From Planctomycetota bacterium (lineage in GTDB: Bacteria > Planctomycetota > PLA2 > JAEUHO01): 64,000 nt of DNA. A model generated the notes under the pieces. The model was given only the letters and a program-made list of their open reading frames with translations, did no database searches and was not told the DNA's origin. The DNA lies in NCBI GenBank assembly GCA_965223505.1, contig CBDCWP010000044.1, positions 64,001 to 128,000 of the forward strand, written 5' to 3'. Below are positions 14,867 to 43,245 of the stretch, one piece after another. The position numbers were made by a program, and so were the translations under genes. The first letter of the stretch is position 1. Every line of letters starts with the position of its first letter.

Positions 14867-14953
14867 GTAGGGGCAGCCCTTGTGGCTGCCCAACCGCACA
14901 TGCGTTGAGACCTGATCGACGAGCGCGTGGGCGACCACGAGGGTCGTCCCTAC
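14867..14953. repeat. GTAG-family REP doublet between convergent genes
   Basis: GTAGGGGCAGCCCTTGTGGCTGCCC ... GGGCGACCACGAGGGTCGTCCCTAC; the right GTAG contains the TAG stop of the methyltransferase. Confidence 0.85.
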
Positions 14954-15582
14954 TGCGGGCGCAGGACGGCGACCCACAGCTCGCGGCGGTACGCGGCAAG
15001 GCCGCGTGCGTCCACCATCCGCAGGCCCGCGGCCGCAGCCTCCTCACGTAACTCCTTTTTCGACAAGGTGTAACGGTCCCCGCGCCGCCTGGTGAACAGG
15101 CGCCGGATGCCCCGGCTCAGGTTGTGGAAGCTCACCGGGTGGTGGAAGGACAGCAGCAGCGTGCCCTGGGTCAGGGCCCGCAGGCCGCGAAGCACGCGCT
15201 CGCGGTGCGCCGCGTCCGGGAGGTGATGGAGGAACCGGAAGCAGACCACCAGGTCGGCGGGCGTGGCATCGGCGGGCACGGCTTCGAGGTCGATCGTCTC
15301 CAGCCCCAAAAAATGGGGCTTTCCGGACAGGCGGCGCTCGGCCTCGGCGCGCATCGCCGGCGACAGATCTGCGGCGCGGGTGGGAATCCCGCGTCCCATC
15401 AGCTGCTCCGCAATGCGTCCCGTGCCGCAGGGCACGTCCAGTGCGCTGCCGGGCGGCTGCGGCAGGTCGTCGAGCAGGCGGGAGAGCAGGGTCCATTCTT
15501 CGGCGTCGCGTTTGGCGCTGCGCGCGGCGTAAGCCCGGGCCTTGCCCGGTTCGTCGTACTTGGTGCGGCCGGCGTAGGACAT
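14950..15582 (-). CDS. Class I SAM-dependent methyltransferase
   Basis: ALDVPCGTGR, ADLSPAM and DLVVCFRFLHHL motifs. Confidence 0.88.
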   Translation of the reverse strand: MSYAGRTKYDEPGKARAYAARSAKRDAEEWTLLSRLLDDLPQPPGSALDVPCGTGRIAEQLMGRGIPTRAADLSPAMRAEAERRLSGKPHFLGLETIDLEAVPADATPADLVVCFRFLHHLPDAAHRERVLRGLRALTQGTLLLSFHHPVSFHNLSRGIRRLFTRRRGDRYTLSKKELREEAAAAGLRMVDARGLAAYRRELWVAVLRPQ

Positions 15583-15680
15583 CGGCCCGAATGTAGGGGA
15601 TGGGATAGGAGGTGGCAGCCCTGATCCTCGGTCGTGCCAAGTGTGTTTACGGCATCAGCCGAGGAAGGAACTGCCACCCC

Positions 15681-16727
15681 ATGACTGCGTACCACGTCGG
15701 AATCGACCTGCACAAGAGTGTCGCCCAAATCTGCGTCCGTGATGCGAAGGGCGAGATCGAAGAGGAGCGGCGGTGGCGCCTGCCGGATCGAAAGGCGGCC
15801 GCGGCGCTGGTTGCGTTTCTTGGCACCTACGGCGGCGGGCGCTTCGCGGTGGAAGCGTTGGGCTGCAACCGCTGGTTCGTGCTGGCCTGCCGCGAAGCGG
15901 GTTTGGAGATGCTTGTGGTGGACGCCACGAAGCTCGATCTGAAGAAGCAGGGCAAGAAGACGGATCGACGCGACGCCCAGGAGATCTCGCGCCGGCTGTA
16001 CCTTGGCGACCTGGACCGCTACGCACTGACCTACTTCGCCACCGAAGCCGAGTTCGGCCAGCGCAAGGTGTTGCGGGTTCGGCATCAGCTCGTTCAGCAT
16101 CGAACCAGCGTGCTGGCGCACATCCGCGGCATGCTCAACGCGTACCTGCTGCGAGCGCCGGTGACGCAGCTGTACACCAAGCGCGGGATCCAGTGGCTTC
16201 GCGAGCAGCGACTGGGTGATGAGAACCAGGATCTGGCGCTGCAGTCGCTGGTGGATGTCGTTGCGGCTCTGCAGGAGCGCATCGAGAAGCTCACCGCTCG
16301 AATCCGCGAGTTGGCCGAGCAGGACGAAGTCTCAGGCTGGATCGTTCGGAATCTGCCACAGGCGGGAGCCCAGACGGCTCTGACGCTTCAAGCTGAGTTG
16401 GGTGACGCAACCCGCTTCCGCGGTGCTCGACAGATCTCGAGCTATGGGGGTGTCGTTCCACGCGTTTCGGCCTCGGCGGATCGAGCGCACCACGGCCGCA
16501 TGACCAAACGCGGAAACGCCGAGTTGCGTTGGGTGCTGGGGCAATGGGCGGTTCGGTTGCTGGCCTTCGACCCAGAGGTGAAGGCGTGGGCACAGCCGAT
16601 GCTCAGGCGCATGCACCGCAACAAGGTTCGAATGGCGCTTGCACGCCGGCTACTGGTGGGCGTGTGGGTGATGTTCTCGCGTGGCGAGGTGTTCTCGCTG
16701 CGTCGGTGCCTAGGCCAGGCTGCCTGA
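15681..16727 (+). CDS. IS110 family transposase/recombinase (DEDD RuvC-like plus Tnp20 domain)
   Basis: VGIDLHK, AVEA and KKTDRRDAQ (DEDD); ELGDATRF, SYGGVVPRVSASA, KRGNAELRWVL and MALARRLL. ATG 15681 follows an AGGAAGG RBS. Confidence 0.95.
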   Translation: MTAYHVGIDLHKSVAQICVRDAKGEIEEERRWRLPDRKAAAALVAFLGTYGGGRFAVEALGCNRWFVLACREAGLEMLVVDATKLDLKKQGKKTDRRDAQEISRRLYLGDLDRYALTYFATEAEFGQRKVLRVRHQLVQHRTSVLAHIRGMLNAYLLRAPVTQLYTKRGIQWLREQRLGDENQDLALQSLVDVVAALQERIEKLTARIRELAEQDEVSGWIVRNLPQAGAQTALTLQAELGDATRFRGARQISSYGGVVPRVSASADRAHHGRMTKRGNAELRWVLGQWAVRLLAFDPEVKAWAQPMLRRMHRNKVRMALARRLLVGVWVMFSRGEVFSLRRCLGQAA

Positions 16728-16729
16728 GC

Positions 16730-16958
16730 GAACGCACTGAGAGAGAGGAAGCGAAACCAGGAATCGGACACCAACGGGCGCGTACTCCGGCGGGCCGCTG
16801 AGCGCATCAGCTCGTGTAGGCGATTGAGAGGCGCGTCCGACTCCCCCTCATGACGCCGCCCGAATAGGCGAGCTCGAAAACCCGAGTGGACGGATCCGAC
16901 CCTGGCGACGCGGAAAGGACGCACGGCCGACAGAAAAGGGCTTGCCATTCCCTAAACC
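16730..16958 (+). ncRNA. Candidate bridge/seek RNA region of the IS110 element
   Basis: About 230-nt 3' non-coding end. A stem AGCTCG(16809)/CGAGCT(16869) encloses TGTAGGCGAT (matching the reconstructed insertion site), an inner hairpin and CGCC. IS110 non-coding ends are known to encode such RNAs. Confidence 0.6.
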
Positions 16959-17051
16959 GGCGATCCTTGTGGTCGCCCAACTCGGCGTCTTGGGCAGCCA
17001 CAAGGGGCTGCCCCTACCTACGGCTTGGGCAGCCACAAGGGCTGCCCCTAC
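16959..17051. repeat. REP cluster (one IS-interrupted REP and two inverted copies)
   Basis: GGCGATCCTTGTGGTCGCCC; GGGCAGCCACAAGGGGCTGCCCCTAC (16992-17017); GGGCAGCCACAAGGGCTGCCCCTAC (17027-17051). Confidence 0.85.
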
Positions 17052-17055
17052 ACCG

Positions 17056-17353
17056 TCACGTGGACGTGGACGTGAACGTGAACCTGCACGACACCTGGAT
17101 CGCTCAGCGGTTCCACGCATACGACCCGTCCGCGCCGACCGCTGCGCCCACTGGCGTCCATGTCTGCGCGGGATCGCGATCGGGATCGGGATCGGGTGCG
17201 GGGGGGCCGCGCCGTGAAGGGTCCTCACGTGAACGTGGACGTGGACGTGAACCTGCACGACACCTGGATCGCTCAGCCGTTCCATGCACTCGGCCCGTCG
17301 GCGCCGACCGCGGTGCCCACTGGCGTCCCTGCGCGGGATCGGGATCGGGATCG
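17056..17353. repeat. Two direct repeats (period about 169 bp), each bounded by (GTGRAC)n and (GGGATC)n hexamer arrays
   Basis: Both copies (from 17056 and 17225) share GTGAACCTGCACGACACCTGGATCGCTCAGC...CCCACTGGCGTCC...CTGCGCGGGATC. Confidence 0.85.
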
Positions 17354-17361
17354 TGGGCTCC

Positions 17362-17385
17362 GTAGGGGCGGGGCGAGCCCCGCCC
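17362..17385. repeat. Second GTAG REP-like family (GTAGGGGCGGGGCGAGCCCCGCCC)
   Basis: GTAG plus palindrome; a near-identical copy lies at 43087-43112. Confidence 0.65.
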
Positions 17386-17448
17386 GTCGCGTGAACACCC
17401 CGGGGGGCAGACATTGCGACCCCTGCGCCCGCCGACCAACGCAAGACC

Positions 17449-36559: not shown

Positions 36560-37224
36560 TGCGCAACAAGACGCACTCGCAACGCGGATTCTCGTTCATC
36601 GAGATCCTCATCGTGATGGGGATCATCGCCACGTTGGCCGGCCTCACGATCGTCGCCGTCCAGATCTTCGCCCGCGAAGGTCCCGAGATGCAGACGAAGA
36701 CGTCGCTGCAGAAGGTGCAGGCGTTGATCGACACGGTGAAGCGGCAGTTCGAGATCTACCCGCCGCTGGACATCACGCGCTGCCCGAACCTCTACATGCA
36801 GGGGCCGGACAAGATCCGACCGCCGGGGAACGATTCGAACGCCGGCATCGAGGTCGTGTACCAGTCGATCTACTGGGACGGCATGAACGTCGAAGCCGGA
36901 TTCGGCGACGCGGAGCTCGGCAACACCGACGAGGACGAGCTCGGCAAGGCCGTGATCTCGTCGGGGAACCCCGCGTTGCTCGAGATCGTGGACGCGTGGG
37001 GCAACCCGCTCGTCTACATTCCGGCGACGGAGTACGCGAAGGTCGAGTCGAACCCGGTGCACATCATCCTCGGGGACCTGGACCGCGGAGGCGAGCTCGT
37101 CGAAGCGCGACCCTGGAAGAGCGAGCATGGTGGGTACGCCCGTCCGAACTCGTTCCAGCTCTACAGCATGGGGCCGGACGGCGAACCGAACACCGAGGAC
37201 GACATCAAGGCTTGGGAAGGCTAG
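36559..37224 (+). CDS. Prepilin/pseudopilin, GspG-like
   Basis: QRG/FSFIEILIVMGIIATLAGL; DAWGNPLVY; FQLYSMGPDGEPNTEDDI. Confidence 0.9.
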   Translation: MRNKTHSQRGFSFIEILIVMGIIATLAGLTIVAVQIFAREGPEMQTKTSLQKVQALIDTVKRQFEIYPPLDITRCPNLYMQGPDKIRPPGNDSNAGIEVVYQSIYWDGMNVEAGFGDAELGNTDEDELGKAVISSGNPALLEIVDAWGNPLVYIPATEYAKVESNPVHIILGDLDRGGELVEARPWKSEHGGYARPNSFQLYSMGPDGEPNTEDDIKAWEG

Positions 37225-37898
37225 CCATCGCAGACGTACGCGCCACGATCCGACGCCGAGCGCAGCGAGGGTACTCGTTCGTCGAGGTGCTCATCGTCAT
37301 GGCGATCATCGCCGTGTTGACGACGCTTTCCATTGCGGCGTTGCGCGTCTGGCAGACGCAGCAGGCGCAGAGTGAGACGAACGAGGCGATTCGGCGGACG
37401 TCGTTCCTGATCACGGACGTCGAGCAACGGCGGGACATGATCCCGCCGATGCGGCTTCGCGACCTGGCGCGGCTGTTCCCGGACGGACCGCGCCCGATCT
37501 CGTCGGACAACGACACCAACGAAGGGATCGAGACGGTGGTGCAGGCCGGAACCGGACCGGGCGTCGCGTCCCGTGTCGATCTTGCCGACCGCATGCTCGG
37601 GAACACGGATAGGGACGTGCTTTCGCGCGTATTCAGCGCGTTGGGACACGCGACGTTGCTCGAGGTGCTGGACGCGTGGGGCAACCCGCTCGTCTACATC
37701 CCGCACATGGAGTACGGCAAGGTCGCGAAGCATCCGGTCACATACGTGCTCGAGAGCGGCGAGGAGGTGGAGGTGCGGCCGTGGCGAAGCGCCTACGGCC
37801 ACTTCGAGCATCCCCATTCGTTCCAGCTCTTCAGCATGGGCCCGGACCGTACGCCCAACACGGACGACGACATTCGGTGGGGGAGGAGCGAGTCGTGA
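37212..37898 (+). CDS. Second GspG-like prepilin (paralog of the upstream gene)
   Basis: QRG/YSFVEVLIVMAIIAVL; DAWGNPLVYIP; FQLFSMGPDRTPNTDDDI. Start uncertain (TTG 37212 or ATC 37227; no ATG nearby). Confidence 0.82.
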   Translation: MGRLAIADVRATIRRRAQRGYSFVEVLIVMAIIAVLTTLSIAALRVWQTQQAQSETNEAIRRTSFLITDVEQRRDMIPPMRLRDLARLFPDGPRPISSDNDTNEGIETVVQAGTGPGVASRVDLADRMLGNTDRDVLSRVFSALGHATLLEVLDAWGNPLVYIPHMEYGKVAKHPVTYVLESGEEVEVRPWRSAYGHFEHPHSFQLFSMGPDRTPNTDDDIRWGRSES

Positions 37899-39100
37899 TG
37901 AGACGTCGGCGCCCCCAGCGGGGCTCTTCGTTCATCGAACTGCTGATGGTCATGGGCGGCATGGCGATCCTGATGGGATTGGCCGTGGGGTTCTTGAGCA
38001 ACATCGGCGGCGCCACGCACCTGGCGCAGGCGAAGGCGCTCATGGTCGAGGCGGCCTACGAGTGCATCGGCAAGAGCAGCGGCGGCGGACGGGCCACGTT
38101 CACGTTGCGCGAGTCGCCCGACGAGGGTCTGCAGCTGCGCGCGATCACGGCATCGCCGGTGCTCACGCACCAGTTCGAGGACCTGCAGTTCGCCAGCGGC
38201 GCGCGCGAGCCGCAGGTGCTCGGCAACGTCGAGTCCGTGCGGGGCGGGCGGACCGGCAAGGCGGCCAAGTTCTCGAGCGGCGGCTATCTCGAATTCGGCG
38301 CCGAGTCGGGCTTCGCGATGACCGAGGGCCTCGAGCTGGAGGCGTGGATCAAGCCCGCCGCCGGCCCGCAGCGGATGTACATCATCCGGGCCGCTTCGCA
38401 TGACGAGGACGTCTACGCCGTCACCCTCGAGCAAGAGGGCCAGGGCAGCGTCTACAAGCTGCAGCTGCAGCTCAAGCTGCGCGGCGCGGAGGAGAGCGAG
38501 CGCACGCCCGGTCTGGTGAAGACGATCCGCACCGAGGGCGCGCCGGTCGTCGCGGACGGCAGCTGGCAGCACATCTCCGTGCGCTTCGACGGCGTCGCCG
38601 CGTCGTTCCGCGTCAACGGCATCGACGTGCCATCCGACGACACCAAGACGAAGCGGCGGGACACCGCGACGGCCGACGTCGCCGAGATGTCCCGCATCGT
38701 GATTCCGGAGTCCGGGGTCCTCAAGCTGACGATCTCCGCGCCGAGCAGCTCGTTCAAGGGCCTCATCGACGGGCTGCAGCTGCGGGGCGTCTTCCGCATC
38801 GTCGAGCAGGAGCTGCCGGGCCGACTGACCGTCATCGCGCCGAAGCTGCCGATCTTCGTCGAGTATGCGAACGGCCGTCTCGACCCCGCGTATCACACGG
38901 ACGCCGTGACGATCCGCTTTCGCGACGAGGCGAACCCCGGCGGCGTCCCGCTGCGCTTGACGTTGGACACGTACGACGTCGAAGCCAAGTTCACCCGGCG
39001 CACGTCCGACGCCGTGCGGCGCTCGTCCGGCGGCGCCGACGACGAGCCCGATCCGGGATCGACGCTCGACCGGCTGAAGAAGAACCAGGGAGGCGGCTAG
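37898..39100 (+). CDS. Minor prepilin (GspH/FimU-like) with LamG-like domain
   Basis: QRG/SSFIELLMVMGGMAILMGL; LEAWIKP...WQHISVRFDG...FRVNG...FKGLID (LamG pattern). Confidence 0.8.
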   Translation: MRRRRPQRGSSFIELLMVMGGMAILMGLAVGFLSNIGGATHLAQAKALMVEAAYECIGKSSGGGRATFTLRESPDEGLQLRAITASPVLTHQFEDLQFASGAREPQVLGNVESVRGGRTGKAAKFSSGGYLEFGAESGFAMTEGLELEAWIKPAAGPQRMYIIRAASHDEDVYAVTLEQEGQGSVYKLQLQLKLRGAEESERTPGLVKTIRTEGAPVVADGSWQHISVRFDGVAASFRVNGIDVPSDDTKTKRRDTATADVAEMSRIVIPESGVLKLTISAPSSSFKGLIDGLQLRGVFRIVEQELPGRLTVIAPKLPIFVEYANGRLDPAYHTDAVTIRFRDEANPGGVPLRLTLDTYDVEAKFTRRTSDAVRRSSGGADDEPDPGSTLDRLKKNQGGG

Positions 39101-39102
39101 CG

Positions 39103-40365
39103 ATGCGCGCTTCCACCCAACGCAGCGAACGCGGCTTCACGATGCTCGAGCTGATCATCGCGATGGCCATCTTCACGTTGCTCGGAACGATGGTCATCAT
39201 GATGATGCGCCAGAGTCTCGACATCTTCTATCAAGGCATCAAAGAGGACGCGCTGTTCAACCGCATGGACACGGCGCTTCCGGTGGTCGCGGAAGACATC
39301 GAGTCGATCTACATCGGCGACGAGTTCGACCCGCCGCCGCCGCCGCTGACCGAAGAGCAGCGCCTCGAGCTCGACCGCATGGGGCAGAAAGAGCGGCCGC
39401 GGGGCAAGCCGTCGGTCGTGCGCATGCGCTCGGGCACGATCATCCTCCAGCAGCAGCCGGAGGGACCGCTCAAGGACTATCCGATGCGTTGGTTCGCGCT
39501 CATCGCGGATCGCACCGGGAGGGTCGATCCGATCCTCGTCAAGGCCGGCAACTACGCCGGGCCCGAGGCCGTCGACTACACGCCGAAGACCGCCAAGGCC
39601 TACCAGCTCGACCGCAGCATCCGCTTCAAGGCCACGGGCGGGTTGATGGAGGTTTGCTACATCGCGGTGCCGGACGAGCGGTTCCCCGAGCTGCTCAGCC
39701 TGTACCGCGGCTACCGCGCGCCGATCGGCGACCCGAAGCACAGCCTGCTGATTCCCGAGAACCTCGACACGATCGAGGAGATCAAGGAACGCTGCACGCT
39801 CGTCGCCAGGGGCCTCCTCTACTTCAACGTCACGTGGCGACGGATCCACGCGACCTCGTGGGAGGAAGACGCCACCGCCGTGGGACAGGACGCGCCGTAC
39901 GTGGGATCGATCTGGGATTCGACGCGCGCGATCGACAAGACGTTTCCCTTGTACGCCGGCGCCGACAGCCTCGTCGACCCCAGCGACGACGTGTTTCCCG
40001 GGTTCGTTCGGCTGCAGCTGTCGTTGAGCCCCGGGGGCAACGCGGGCTACGGCAAGGGCGAGCTCACGCTGGAGAGCGGGATCGGCCCCGACGACACGGA
40101 GCTCTCGGTCTCGGACCCGCAAAAGCTGCTGCAGGGACGCGGCAACGAGCGCTACCTGAAGATCGGCACCGAGTGGATGAGCTACGGCCCGCGTGACGTC
40201 AACACCCAGAAGAAGACGGTGCGTGTCGATCGGGGCGCGCGCGGGACCACCAAGCAGTCGCACGACGCCGGTTGGATCCACGTCGGCATGGACGCCGCGC
40301 AAGAGATCAAGATGCCCGTGTACCGCGACAGCTACACGGTCGGCGTCGGGGAGAAGGGACCGTGA
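39103..40365 (+). CDS. Minor prepilin (GspJ/PilW-like)
   Basis: ERG/FTMLELIIAMAIFTLLG. Confidence 0.85.
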   Translation: MRASTQRSERGFTMLELIIAMAIFTLLGTMVIMMMRQSLDIFYQGIKEDALFNRMDTALPVVAEDIESIYIGDEFDPPPPPLTEEQRLELDRMGQKERPRGKPSVVRMRSGTIILQQQPEGPLKDYPMRWFALIADRTGRVDPILVKAGNYAGPEAVDYTPKTAKAYQLDRSIRFKATGGLMEVCYIAVPDERFPELLSLYRGYRAPIGDPKHSLLIPENLDTIEEIKERCTLVARGLLYFNVTWRRIHATSWEEDATAVGQDAPYVGSIWDSTRAIDKTFPLYAGADSLVDPSDDVFPGFVRLQLSLSPGGNAGYGKGELTLESGIGPDDTELSVSDPQKLLQGRGNERYLKIGTEWMSYGPRDVNTQKKTVRVDRGARGTTKQSHDAGWIHVGMDAAQEIKMPVYRDSYTVGVGEKGP

Positions 40366-40784
40366 TGCGGCAGCCGCCTCCCACCCACGCGCAACGCGGA
40401 TTCTCGTTTCTCGAGGTGTTGATCGCGATGTCGATCCTCATCGTGGGAAGCGTTTCGATCTTGTCGCTCTTCGTCATCGGCGTTCACAACCAGGTGGAGC
40501 GCCGGATCGAGAAGCGACTCGAGGAGGTGCGTCCGGAGGTCATGACGATCGTCCAGGAAGCGGTCGACACGCTCGCCTCCGACGCCAAGCTCACCGAAAA
40601 CACCGTGAAGGGCCGTCCGCTGTCGAAGCGCGGCTACACGGTGGACGTTCGTTGGACGCCGAATCCGTTCGGCGGCCCGGGATGGTTCGCCCACGCGGTC
40701 ATCCTCTTCCGTGACGAGCCGGTCGCGACGCTGAAACCGATCCCGGTGACGCGTTCGACGCTCAATCCGAACAAGCCGAAGTGA
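40365..40784 (+). CDS. Minor prepilin (GspI/PilV-like)
   Basis: QRG/FSFLEVLIAMSILIVG; short protein. Confidence 0.85.
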   Translation: MRQPPPTHAQRGFSFLEVLIAMSILIVGSVSILSLFVIGVHNQVERRIEKRLEEVRPEVMTIVQEAVDTLASDAKLTENTVKGRPLSKRGYTVDVRWTPNPFGGPGWFAHAVILFRDEPVATLKPIPVTRSTLNPNKPK

Positions 40785-42397: not shown

Positions 42398-43090
42398 ATG
42401 ATGCCTCGACTCGGTACGCTGTGCGCCTTGCTTGCCGTTCTCTTGCTTTGCACCAGCGTCGCGTTCGCGCGCGGCGGCCGTGGCCCGGGCGGCAACAACA
42501 ACCCGAACCCGGCAAAGGGGGAAGAGGGCGCCGACCCGAACGATCCGAACGCGAAGCCCAAGCCCGAGCCGTTGCCGGAGAGCACGGTGCAACGGCTGCG
42601 GGGCCGCTTGGCGAAGCTGGGTGAGCGGCTGCTGGAGCTGAAGCAGCTCGCGGACAGCGATCCGCGCGAGATGGAGATCCGCAAGTACCGCGAGTTCAAG
42701 CTCGCCGCGTTCAAAGACAAGAAGCGCAGTCCGAAGGCGGAAGATCTGATCGCCTGGATGTTCGAGCCGGACAAGAAGACGAAGAAGTTGGCGCCGTTCA
42801 CGTTGCGCGAGGCGGCACTGAAGGCGTTGGTCGACCAGAAGATGCGCGATCCGGATCTTTCGTCGTCGGACTCGGGCTCGCGCGGCAGTCCGCGGGCCAA
42901 GCTGTGCAAGGACGAGGTCGTGAAGCACCTGAAGGACGACGACCCGACGACGCGCGAGCTGGCGAACCAGCTGTTGAACCAGCTTTGGACGCGCCCGCCG
43001 GAGCCGGCGATCATCAACTACGATGCCCGCGTCGAGGAGACGTGGAAGCCGGCCATCAGGGCCTGGAACAAGCACCTCAAGAAGAAGTAG
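42398..43090 (+). CDS. Exported helical (HEAT-like) hypothetical protein
   Basis: Signal peptide (AFA/R); VVKHLKDDDPTTRELANQLL HEAT-like motif. Confidence 0.7.
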   Translation: MMPRLGTLCALLAVLLLCTSVAFARGGRGPGGNNNPNPAKGEEGADPNDPNAKPKPEPLPESTVQRLRGRLAKLGERLLELKQLADSDPREMEIRKYREFKLAAFKDKKRSPKAEDLIAWMFEPDKKTKKLAPFTLREAALKALVDQKMRDPDLSSSDSGSRGSPRAKLCKDEVVKHLKDDDPTTRELANQLLNQLWTRPPEPAIINYDARVEETWKPAIRAWNKHLKKK

Positions 43091-43112
43091 GGGCGGGGGC
43101 GAGGCCCCGCCC
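43087..43112. repeat. GTAG REP-like hairpin overlapping the stop codon
   Basis: GTAGGGGCGGGGGCGAGGCCCCGCCC; matches 17362-17385. Confidence 0.6.
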
Positions 43113-43245
43113 GCCCGTTTGGACACCTCGGTTGTGCGTCGCATACGGTGATCGATCGCCGTCGATTGCGTCCATGGCGAGCATCTTCGGCATCGCGAGG
43201 GCATCGGGCACGGCTTCGACACCGGGTTGTCGGTACGCTGAGCCC

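Follow-up and report, generated by a model that had tools for sequence, protein, structure and literature searches.

Downstream of a transposase gene in this stretch of Planctomycetota DNA (the window, meaning the whole 64,000 nt analysed) lie 233 nt of non-coding DNA (16728-16960), against 78 nt (15600-15677) upstream of the gene. The question raised by the locus is whether the downstream DNA encodes a programmable guide RNA and, if so, which of its segments read which DNA. The preliminary description had proposed a programmable bridge- or seek-type guide RNA of an IS110-family element, a proposal that the fold and the guide covariation reported below support. We conclude that 16757-16905 (+) very probably encodes the guide RNA of an IS110-family insertion sequence (15600-16960) whose layout is of IS1111 type. 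The conclusion is built on the observed fold, the covariation between guides and DNA, the element boundaries and the intact catalytic motifs.

The transposase (349 aa) matches the Pfam domains PF01548 (E 5.8e-11) and PF02371 (E 3.2e-19) and scores 181.5 bits against the NCBIfam model NF033542, 'IS110 family RNA-guided transposase' (cut-off 140). Its open reading frame (15612-16727) is open from a GTG at 15612, and the start at 15678 was chosen from homologue starts. The frame is intact and all catalytic positions are kept: D10, E59, D96, D99, G258, P261 and S266 are invariant among 38 aligned sequences, with S266 lying in a G258..P261....S266 motif. Motif and spacing only were used to match residues D10/E59/D96/D99/S266 to IS621 D11/E60/D102/D105/S241, the N-terminal halves having failed to align.

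The protein collection contained 870 relatives, the best at 79% identity. A scan of reference genomes gave 71 loci, among which L001-L030 are 44-63% identical to the window transposase and are spread over Planctomycetota, Myxococcota, Gemmatimonadota and Krumholzibacteria as well as further assembled genomes; the other 41 (L031-L071) are distant, at ~25% identity. Some counts below omit loci without a usable downstream region (L004, L023, L026, L028 and L030), without an identifiable right junction (L001, L008 and L022) or without a left junction (L007). Four loci (L009, L010, L025 and L027) lie on one Myxococcota chromosome (OZ245002.1); their RNAs do not differ, nor do their right flanks over ~20 nt. 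Because no left end can be recognised in L025 and the transposase match of L027 begins only at residue 150, this chromosome carries whole and broken copies.

The element boundaries were taken from the aligned left ends (n = 30 sequences) and downstream regions (n = 25) of relatives and from REP-like paralogues. They place the element at 15600-16960 (+), 1361 bp including one core copy, with the following features.

15592..15597 (+), TGTAGG, left target flank (LT): final 6 nt of the split REP-like element 5′ of the core, identical to 16815-20 in the RNA
15598..15599 (+), left copy of the GG core; the left ends of the family all begin with the core
15600, start of the element's left end, which opens ATGGGATAGG
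15604-09, GATAGG, −10-like half of a putative junction promoter
15606..15622 (+), left sub-terminal inverted repeat, seen by eye in the window and aligned in relatives
15678..16727 (+), transposase/recombinase gene, 349 aa
16937..16954 (+), right sub-terminal inverted repeat
16942-47, TTGCCA, within the right repeat, −35-like half of the putative junction promoter
16958, last base of the element's right end, which finishes CCTAAACC
16959..16960 (+), right copy of the GG core
16961..16986 (+), right target flank, starting CGATCC: the remainder of the interrupted REP-like palindrome
14867-14900 (+), 14920-14953 (−), 16985-17017 (−), 17019-17051 (−), 17362-17390 (+) and 43087-43120 (+), REP-like elements

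Both ends are conserved among relatives. The left end reads core, then A/G-n-GG-TATAG, then one inverted-repeat arm; the right end reads TTGACn, the other arm, CTAAAn, then core. The element has an IS1111-type layout, with the longer non-coding region downstream of the gene and with sub-terminal repeats (15606-22 and 16937-54) that are imperfect by eye in the window and were found by local alignment in most relatives. A longer downstream non-coding region and sub-terminal inverted repeats of 7-17 bp are the published marks of IS1111 elements (PMC11208160, PMC11187229). At the right junctions of L005 and L007 the right end is followed by GC instead of GG, and the left junction of L005 has GG; either the core differs between the two sides or the register of the right junction is shifted in this sub-group.

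When the flanks are rejoined through one GG, they run parallel to four REP-like copies in the window, at 14867 (+), 17010 (−), 17044 (−) and 14946 (−). These paralogues read GTAGG, then GG, then C. The empty site proposed earlier, TGTAGGCGATCC, which would have given a perfect 10/10 match to the RNA, is without one GG and is wrong, because it is missing the GG core that the paralogue alignment contains. In the REP-like unit, GTAGGGGC (or GTAGGGAC) precedes a GC-rich palindrome whose loop is of the CTTGTGG type, and the copies are intergenic. One copy is split by the insertion sequence and two others lie head to tail directly downstream of it. Among 17 repeat families in the 64-kb window there was no second copy of the element.

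The element thus lies inside a REP-like repeat, with a methyltransferase gene on one side and a glycosyltransferase gene on the other. Between the insertion sequence and the glycosyltransferase gene there is a 107-nt direct repeat (17056-17162 and 17225-17331, 90% identical), accompanied by runs of GTGGAC/GTGAAC hexamers and of GGGATC. Elsewhere in the window (36571-40439), a 57-nt motif occurs five times at the starts of neighbouring open reading frames; it looks like a prepilin-type hydrophobic N-terminal segment and would suggest a pseudopilin gene cluster.

Alignment of the downstream regions yielded an RNA domain with four predicted helices, P0 to P3.

16757..16905 (+), bridge/seek RNA domain of ~150 nt, with P0 as its closing helix
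16757-61 and 16764-68 with 16895-99 and 16901-05, helix P0
16777..16837 (+), target-binding loop, with P1 (16777-83 and 16785-86 with 16829-37) as its closing helix
16800-03 with 16810-13, hairpin P2, at the tip of the target-binding loop
16852..16875 (+), hairpin P3 (16852-53 and 16855-59 with 16868-70 and 16872-75), which holds the family motif GAGCTCG

The four predicted helices are supported by compensatory changes. From 21 non-identical sequences, RNAalifold independently found ten pairs of P1 and three of P2, with compensatory changes in 11 of these 13. In a MAFFT alignment of the 21 RNAs, the hand-drawn P0-P3 structure (26 pairs) has 84.2% of its cells paired, compared with 66.9% in shuffles (0/500 reach the observed value); both partners have changed in 20 of the 26 pairs, and shifting the register by 1-3 columns gives at most 47.6%. 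Pairing is 93.8% in P1, where 8/10 pairs have both partners changed, 83.3% in P2, and 88.9% and 90.6% in the two parts of P3. All pairs of P3 are valid in the window, where the hairpin has one extra bulged C relative to the family alignment; we had at one stage read it as missing two bases, a description dropped in favour of the bulge. P0 was tested per sequence, its fixed columns being poorly aligned (59.0% and 60.9% paired in two runs): cognate strands give −11.05 kcal/mol versus −7.18 kcal/mol for non-cognate strands, with 0/20000 permutations as low, and the window duplex (−14.3 kcal/mol) ranks first of 22 partners. In the window, each of the 30 family pairs is a standard one, those of the outer P0 arm among them, and all are present in the minimum-free-energy fold of 16757-16905.

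A covariance model built from these homologous 3′ ends, the check that the preliminary description had proposed together with guide/target covariation, identifies a conserved RNA. It gave 26 full-length matches in 72 sources, namely the window once and 25 of L001-L029, so that the RNA was found behind every related transposase with a usable downstream region. The window match spans 16745-16908 (118.3 bits, E 1.6e-32), and L029, which was outside the training set, scores 116.6 bits. The 41 distant loci gave no match, and the scan gave one partial hit, at E 0.066. Rfam returned 0 matches for the whole window at the gathering score and, for 15400-17200 at E ≤10, three weak unrelated matches only (mir-1956-like and isrG-like on REP hairpins, and one inside the gene).

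The base strings cited in the preliminary description are all present: AGCTCG (16809-14), CGAGCT (16869-74), TGTAGGCGAT (16815-24), TGAGAGG (16825-31), CCCCTCA (16844-50), CGCC (16854-57), AAACC (16878-82), ATCC (16894-97), TGTAGG (15592-97) and TAAACC (16953-58). In the architecture drawn from them, a closing stem AGCTCG/CGAGCT surrounds a TGAGAGG/CCCCTCA hairpin, TGTAGGCGAT serves as a left guide of 10 nt, and the right guides are CGCC for the target and ATCC for the donor. The window sequence does allow the 6-bp stem. Across the 21 RNAs, however, these stems are 46.9% paired against 48.2% in shuffles, 459/500 of which are at least as high, and their covariation score falls below that of shuffles. 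In the family fold, AGCTCG is the 3′ arm of P2; the near-invariant motif GAGCTCG makes up the 3′ arm of P3; TGAGAGG belongs to that of P1; and CCCCTCA is the right donor guide. CGCC and ATCC sit in helices with covariation support, the former inside P3 and the latter in the 3′ arm of the closing helix P0. The 10/10 match, moreover, requires the GG-less empty site contradicted by the REP-like paralogues. We regard this architecture as extremely improbable and keep the P0-P3 fold. One further candidate, a 'CTCG/CGAG' hairpin at ~16873-86, was dropped, its loop being what would be the left donor guide.

A different reading of the downstream region is that it works not as a guide RNA but as DNA, in transposase binding or end recognition, or as a 3′ stabiliser or terminator of the mRNA. 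The region adjoins the right inverted repeat, no sigma-70-like promoter of its own was found in 15500-17100, and its fold stability is not unusual: the 235-nt interval 16728-16962 gives z = +0.99, and 163/200 shuffles fold at least as well. Against this, compensatory changes keep four helices, and P1 contains U-G/G-U pairs that are compatible only with the + strand, on which the transposase gene also lies; on the other strand they would be C-A. Moreover, no terminator-like site occurs in 16728-16960; two such sites within 15500-17100 are both inside the gene. This reading is also disfavoured because the loop segments track DNA beyond the element across genomes, as detailed below, which is expected neither of a DNA site nor of a stabiliser. 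We therefore judge it very improbable and treat the region as the gene of a structured RNA.

In the fold so defined, P0 brackets the whole RNA, the P1 internal loop tipped by P2 would be the loop for target binding, and the strands between P1, P3 and P0 would be the donor-binding loop. In each loop, the 5′ strand would be antisense to the DNA right of the GG core, and the 3′ strand would have the same sense as the DNA left of the core and so pair with the bottom strand. The candidate guide segments are as follows.

16789..16798 (+), right target guide, on the 5′ loop strand, antisense to the core (its second base) and the right flank; 5/8 in the window
16815-20 (+), left target guide TGTAGG, within 16815..16824, same sense as the last six bases of the left flank; 6/6 in the window
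16844..16850 (+), right donor guide, antisense to core and left end (15598-15604); 5/7 in the window
16877-82 (+), left donor guide AAAACC, then C, G, A (16877..16885); 5/6 identical to the right end TAAACC at 16953-58

The four unpaired segments were compared with DNA at junctions fixed by coordinates. For the left target guide, cognate pairs match at 4.63 of 6 positions versus 1.94 for non-cognate pairs (n = 19; 0/20000 permutations), and the cognate site is best or tied in 18/19; L001 (3/6), L003 (3/6) and L006 (1/6) are the weak cases. TGTAGG, already named as the left target guide in the preliminary description, is thus borne out both by its 6/6 match in the window and by covariation in relatives. 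The right target guide gives 6.78 versus 3.72 of 8 (n = 18; 0/20000) as the best of three registers, which were allowed as sub-groups differ by 1-2 bases in register; with the register fixed at one setting, cognate pairs score only 3.5-4.1 of 8. Reducing the set to a single locus for each target type (n = 10) gives 4.70 versus 1.71 of 6 for the left target guide and 7.00 versus 3.47 of 8 for the right one, each with 0/200000 permutations reaching the observed value, and for the right guide the cognate site is strictly best in 9/10. The relatives document natural retargeting to at least ten different sites. Searching the window with the guide-predicted target, at ≤3 mismatches, gave one chance-level match. 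At L020/L021 and L016 the rejoined flanks are perfect or near-perfect palindromes around the core, which makes the two target guides within a single RNA partly complementary to each other.

Both donor comparisons link two parts of one element and are inflated by shared descent. With that proviso, the left donor guide scores 4.78 versus 3.08 of 6, with the cognate end best or tied in 18/18 loci, and it matches across the end types AACC, ATCC, AAGG, AAGA, AACG, AGGA, AAAG and GAAG. This covariation upholds the earlier assignment of AAACC at 16878 as the left donor guide; the alternative AAACC near 16754 was rejected, as it lies just 5′ of the outer P0 arm and has no counterpart in relatives. For the right donor guide, the best register has Watson-Crick pairs in 19, 18, 12, 7, 18, 16 and 16 of 21 loci over its seven positions, and the cognate score is 5.05 versus 4.53 of 8 for non-cognate ends, a weak contrast to which the same descent applies. 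All four putative guide segments, the core and the scaffold are readable from comparative data alone.

The window copy itself matches less well on its right side, which bears on whether a true bridge/seek RNA gene is here carried by an immobile relic, stranded at a poorly matching site with its signals weakened. Its right target guide, at 5/8, does no better than tie with non-cognate sites, and the four REP-like paralogues reach 6/8. The right donor guide has an A opposite the first core G, losing a pair present in 19/21 loci; the junction hexamers are TTGCCA/GATAGG where the family has TTGACN/TATAGN; and the element is single copy in 64 kb. Against decay stand the intact open reading frame with all catalytic positions conserved, a covariance score (118.3 bits) that ranks seventh of 26, the ability of all 30 family pairs to form, and the 6/6 and 5/6 matches of the left target and left donor guides. 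Some mismatch tolerance is also found in published IS621 data (PMC11208160, PMC11208158). We consider a relic unlikely, if not negligibly so. Given the weak right target match, the window copy may or may not be mobile; the assignment of 16757-16905 as a guide RNA gene is common to both cases.

The letters that follow TGTAGG in the RNA call for a reading of their own. TGTAGGCGAT (16815-24) had been described as a 10-nt left guide, and its first six bases stand as such. The last four, CGAT, had been taken as the right flank with the core skipped. That match is 4/4 in the window and 0-2/4 in each of 18 other loci, and 43590/50000 permutations score as high; the assignment was rejected, since in relatives CGAT tracks the core and the first two left-end bases. 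Every locus has C as the next letter in both left-guide strands, and this C equals the first core base in 0/20. The letter after C equals the second core base in 20/20 loci, including the locus with core GA, where the RNA has A. That locus, L018 from a Gemmatimonadales metagenome-assembled genome, is the sole one with GA rather than GG, at both junctions, and both of its left-guide strands have CA rather than CG.

In the target loop, the following two letters equal the first two left-end bases in 17/20 and 15/20 loci, against non-cognate rates of 0.49 and 0.31. Pooled, the two letters match the left end at 32/40 positions (0/50000 permutations) and, without six loci with G-run targets, at 22/28 (115/50000), whereas the same letters match the right flank, without the G-run group, at 8/26 (11747/50000 permutations). 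Because RNA and left end belong to a single element, the left-end match is inflated by descent. In the window, TGTAGGCGAT matches the actual left junction (15592-15601) at 9/10 positions; with ≤1 mismatch it occurs 8 times in the window versus 1.75 expected, and 0/100 shuffles reach 8. On this comparative evidence, TGTAGGCGAT is six left-target bases, a putative spacer, the second core base and two left-end bases.

One possible, if rather doubtful, reading of these letters is that the hand-over between target and donor in this clade takes place on the bottom strand. The left-guide strand would skip the first core base and read the recombination product, and the donor loop would consist of the single strands of a P0/P1/P3 three-way junction. 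If true, such a bottom-strand extension would be the mirror image of the IS621 handshake, and IS1111-type elements could then exchange strands in a different order.

The element ends also carry what look like two halves of a promoter. Joining the ends through one core brings the TTGACn of the right repeat to a distance of 17 nt from the left-end nATAGn in 13/16 relatives, among L002-L024, having both motifs; the window hexamers TTGCCA (16942-47) and GATAGG (15604-09), weaker than the family TTGACN and TATAGN, are likewise 17 apart by manual count. The halves reach this spacing only upon joining of the ends, and they are oriented into the transposase gene. A circle-junction promoter is described for the IS110 family (PMC13604230), and Pjunc of ISEc11 figures in a paper title.

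A working scheme can be put together from these features, its steps resting on published work on IS621, ISEc11 and ISPa11; by analogy with that work, the RNA would be transcribed, bound by the transposase and used in recombination. The element would first be excised as a circle, whose joined ends would make both the donor site and a TTGNNN-17-nt-nATAGN promoter directed into the transposase gene. RNA-loaded transposase would then pair with the donor junction and with a REP-like target (GTAGG, GG, C), and DNA exchange at the GG core would leave GG on both sides.

RNA-guided bridge recombinases are under development as genome-editing tools, and mechanistic work has dealt mostly with IS621 and a few relatives. 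The clade described here offers a compact recombinase of ~349 aa with a ~150-nt RNA. For the annotation of the window the outcome is ordinary, namely one insertion sequence inside a REP-like repeat.

The kind of system was already described in 2024, and what is new here is a member in little-studied phyla. The nearest published counterparts are IS1111 elements. The seekRNAs of ISEc11, ISPa11 and ISKpn4 (Siddiquee et al. 2024, PMC11187229) likewise come from a non-coding region downstream of the gene in elements with sub-terminal repeats, and the published long forms of 148-172 nt (PMC13604230, Table 1) compare with ~150 nt here. The guide order given for IS1111-type seekRNAs, with the top-strand-complementary segment 5′ of the bottom-strand one (PMC11187229), is the same as that predicted here. 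The ISPa11 target (PMC13604230, Table 1) is, as here, a repeated palindromic element; it also begins GTAGGG and has the insertion point GG*CG. Durrant et al. (PMC11208160) predict a bridge RNA in the right end of 93.0% of IS1111-group elements and report long inverted repeats for the group. Their predictions for ISCARN28, ISAzs32 and ISPa11, IS1111-group elements from ISfinder (PMC11208160, Extended Data Fig. 10), place the RNA in the right end, as here. The transposases nonetheless differ in sequence: the closest named plasmid elements are ISHvo10, at 33% identity to the window transposase, and IS5075/IS4321, at 24% over 95% of the length. The seekRNA account also differs in kind, describing target matches and 'donor flank' reprogramming with no donor-binding loop in the portions cited here (PMC11187229), whereas four candidate guides are named from sequence in the present RNA.

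The bridge RNA of IS621 (Durrant et al. 2024, PMC11208160; Hiraizumi et al. 2024, PMC11208158) provides the other comparison. It has two loops, in each of which the left guide pairs with the bottom strand and the right guide with the top strand, as would be the case here. IS621 further shares a 2-nt core at both junctions, a recombinase of DEDD plus Ser type and a REP-type target, as well as extra guide letters that continue past the core to read the other DNA, the handshake (PMC11208160, PMC11208158). Several features set the two apart. The RNA lies in the left end of IS621 and in the right end here (PMC11208160), the guide order within each loop is reversed here, and the core is CT in IS621 and GG here (PMC11208160, PMC11208158). 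The left-guide strands here match the first core base in none of the 20 loci, unlike those of IS621, and the handshake letters, which in IS621 come after the right guides and pair with the top strand, lie here on the left-guide strand and would read the left end's bottom strand (PMC11208160, PMC11208158). At the protein level, the solved IS621 and ISCro4 structures align with the window transposase over the C-terminal domain only (E ~2e-5; 2.3e-5 for IS621).
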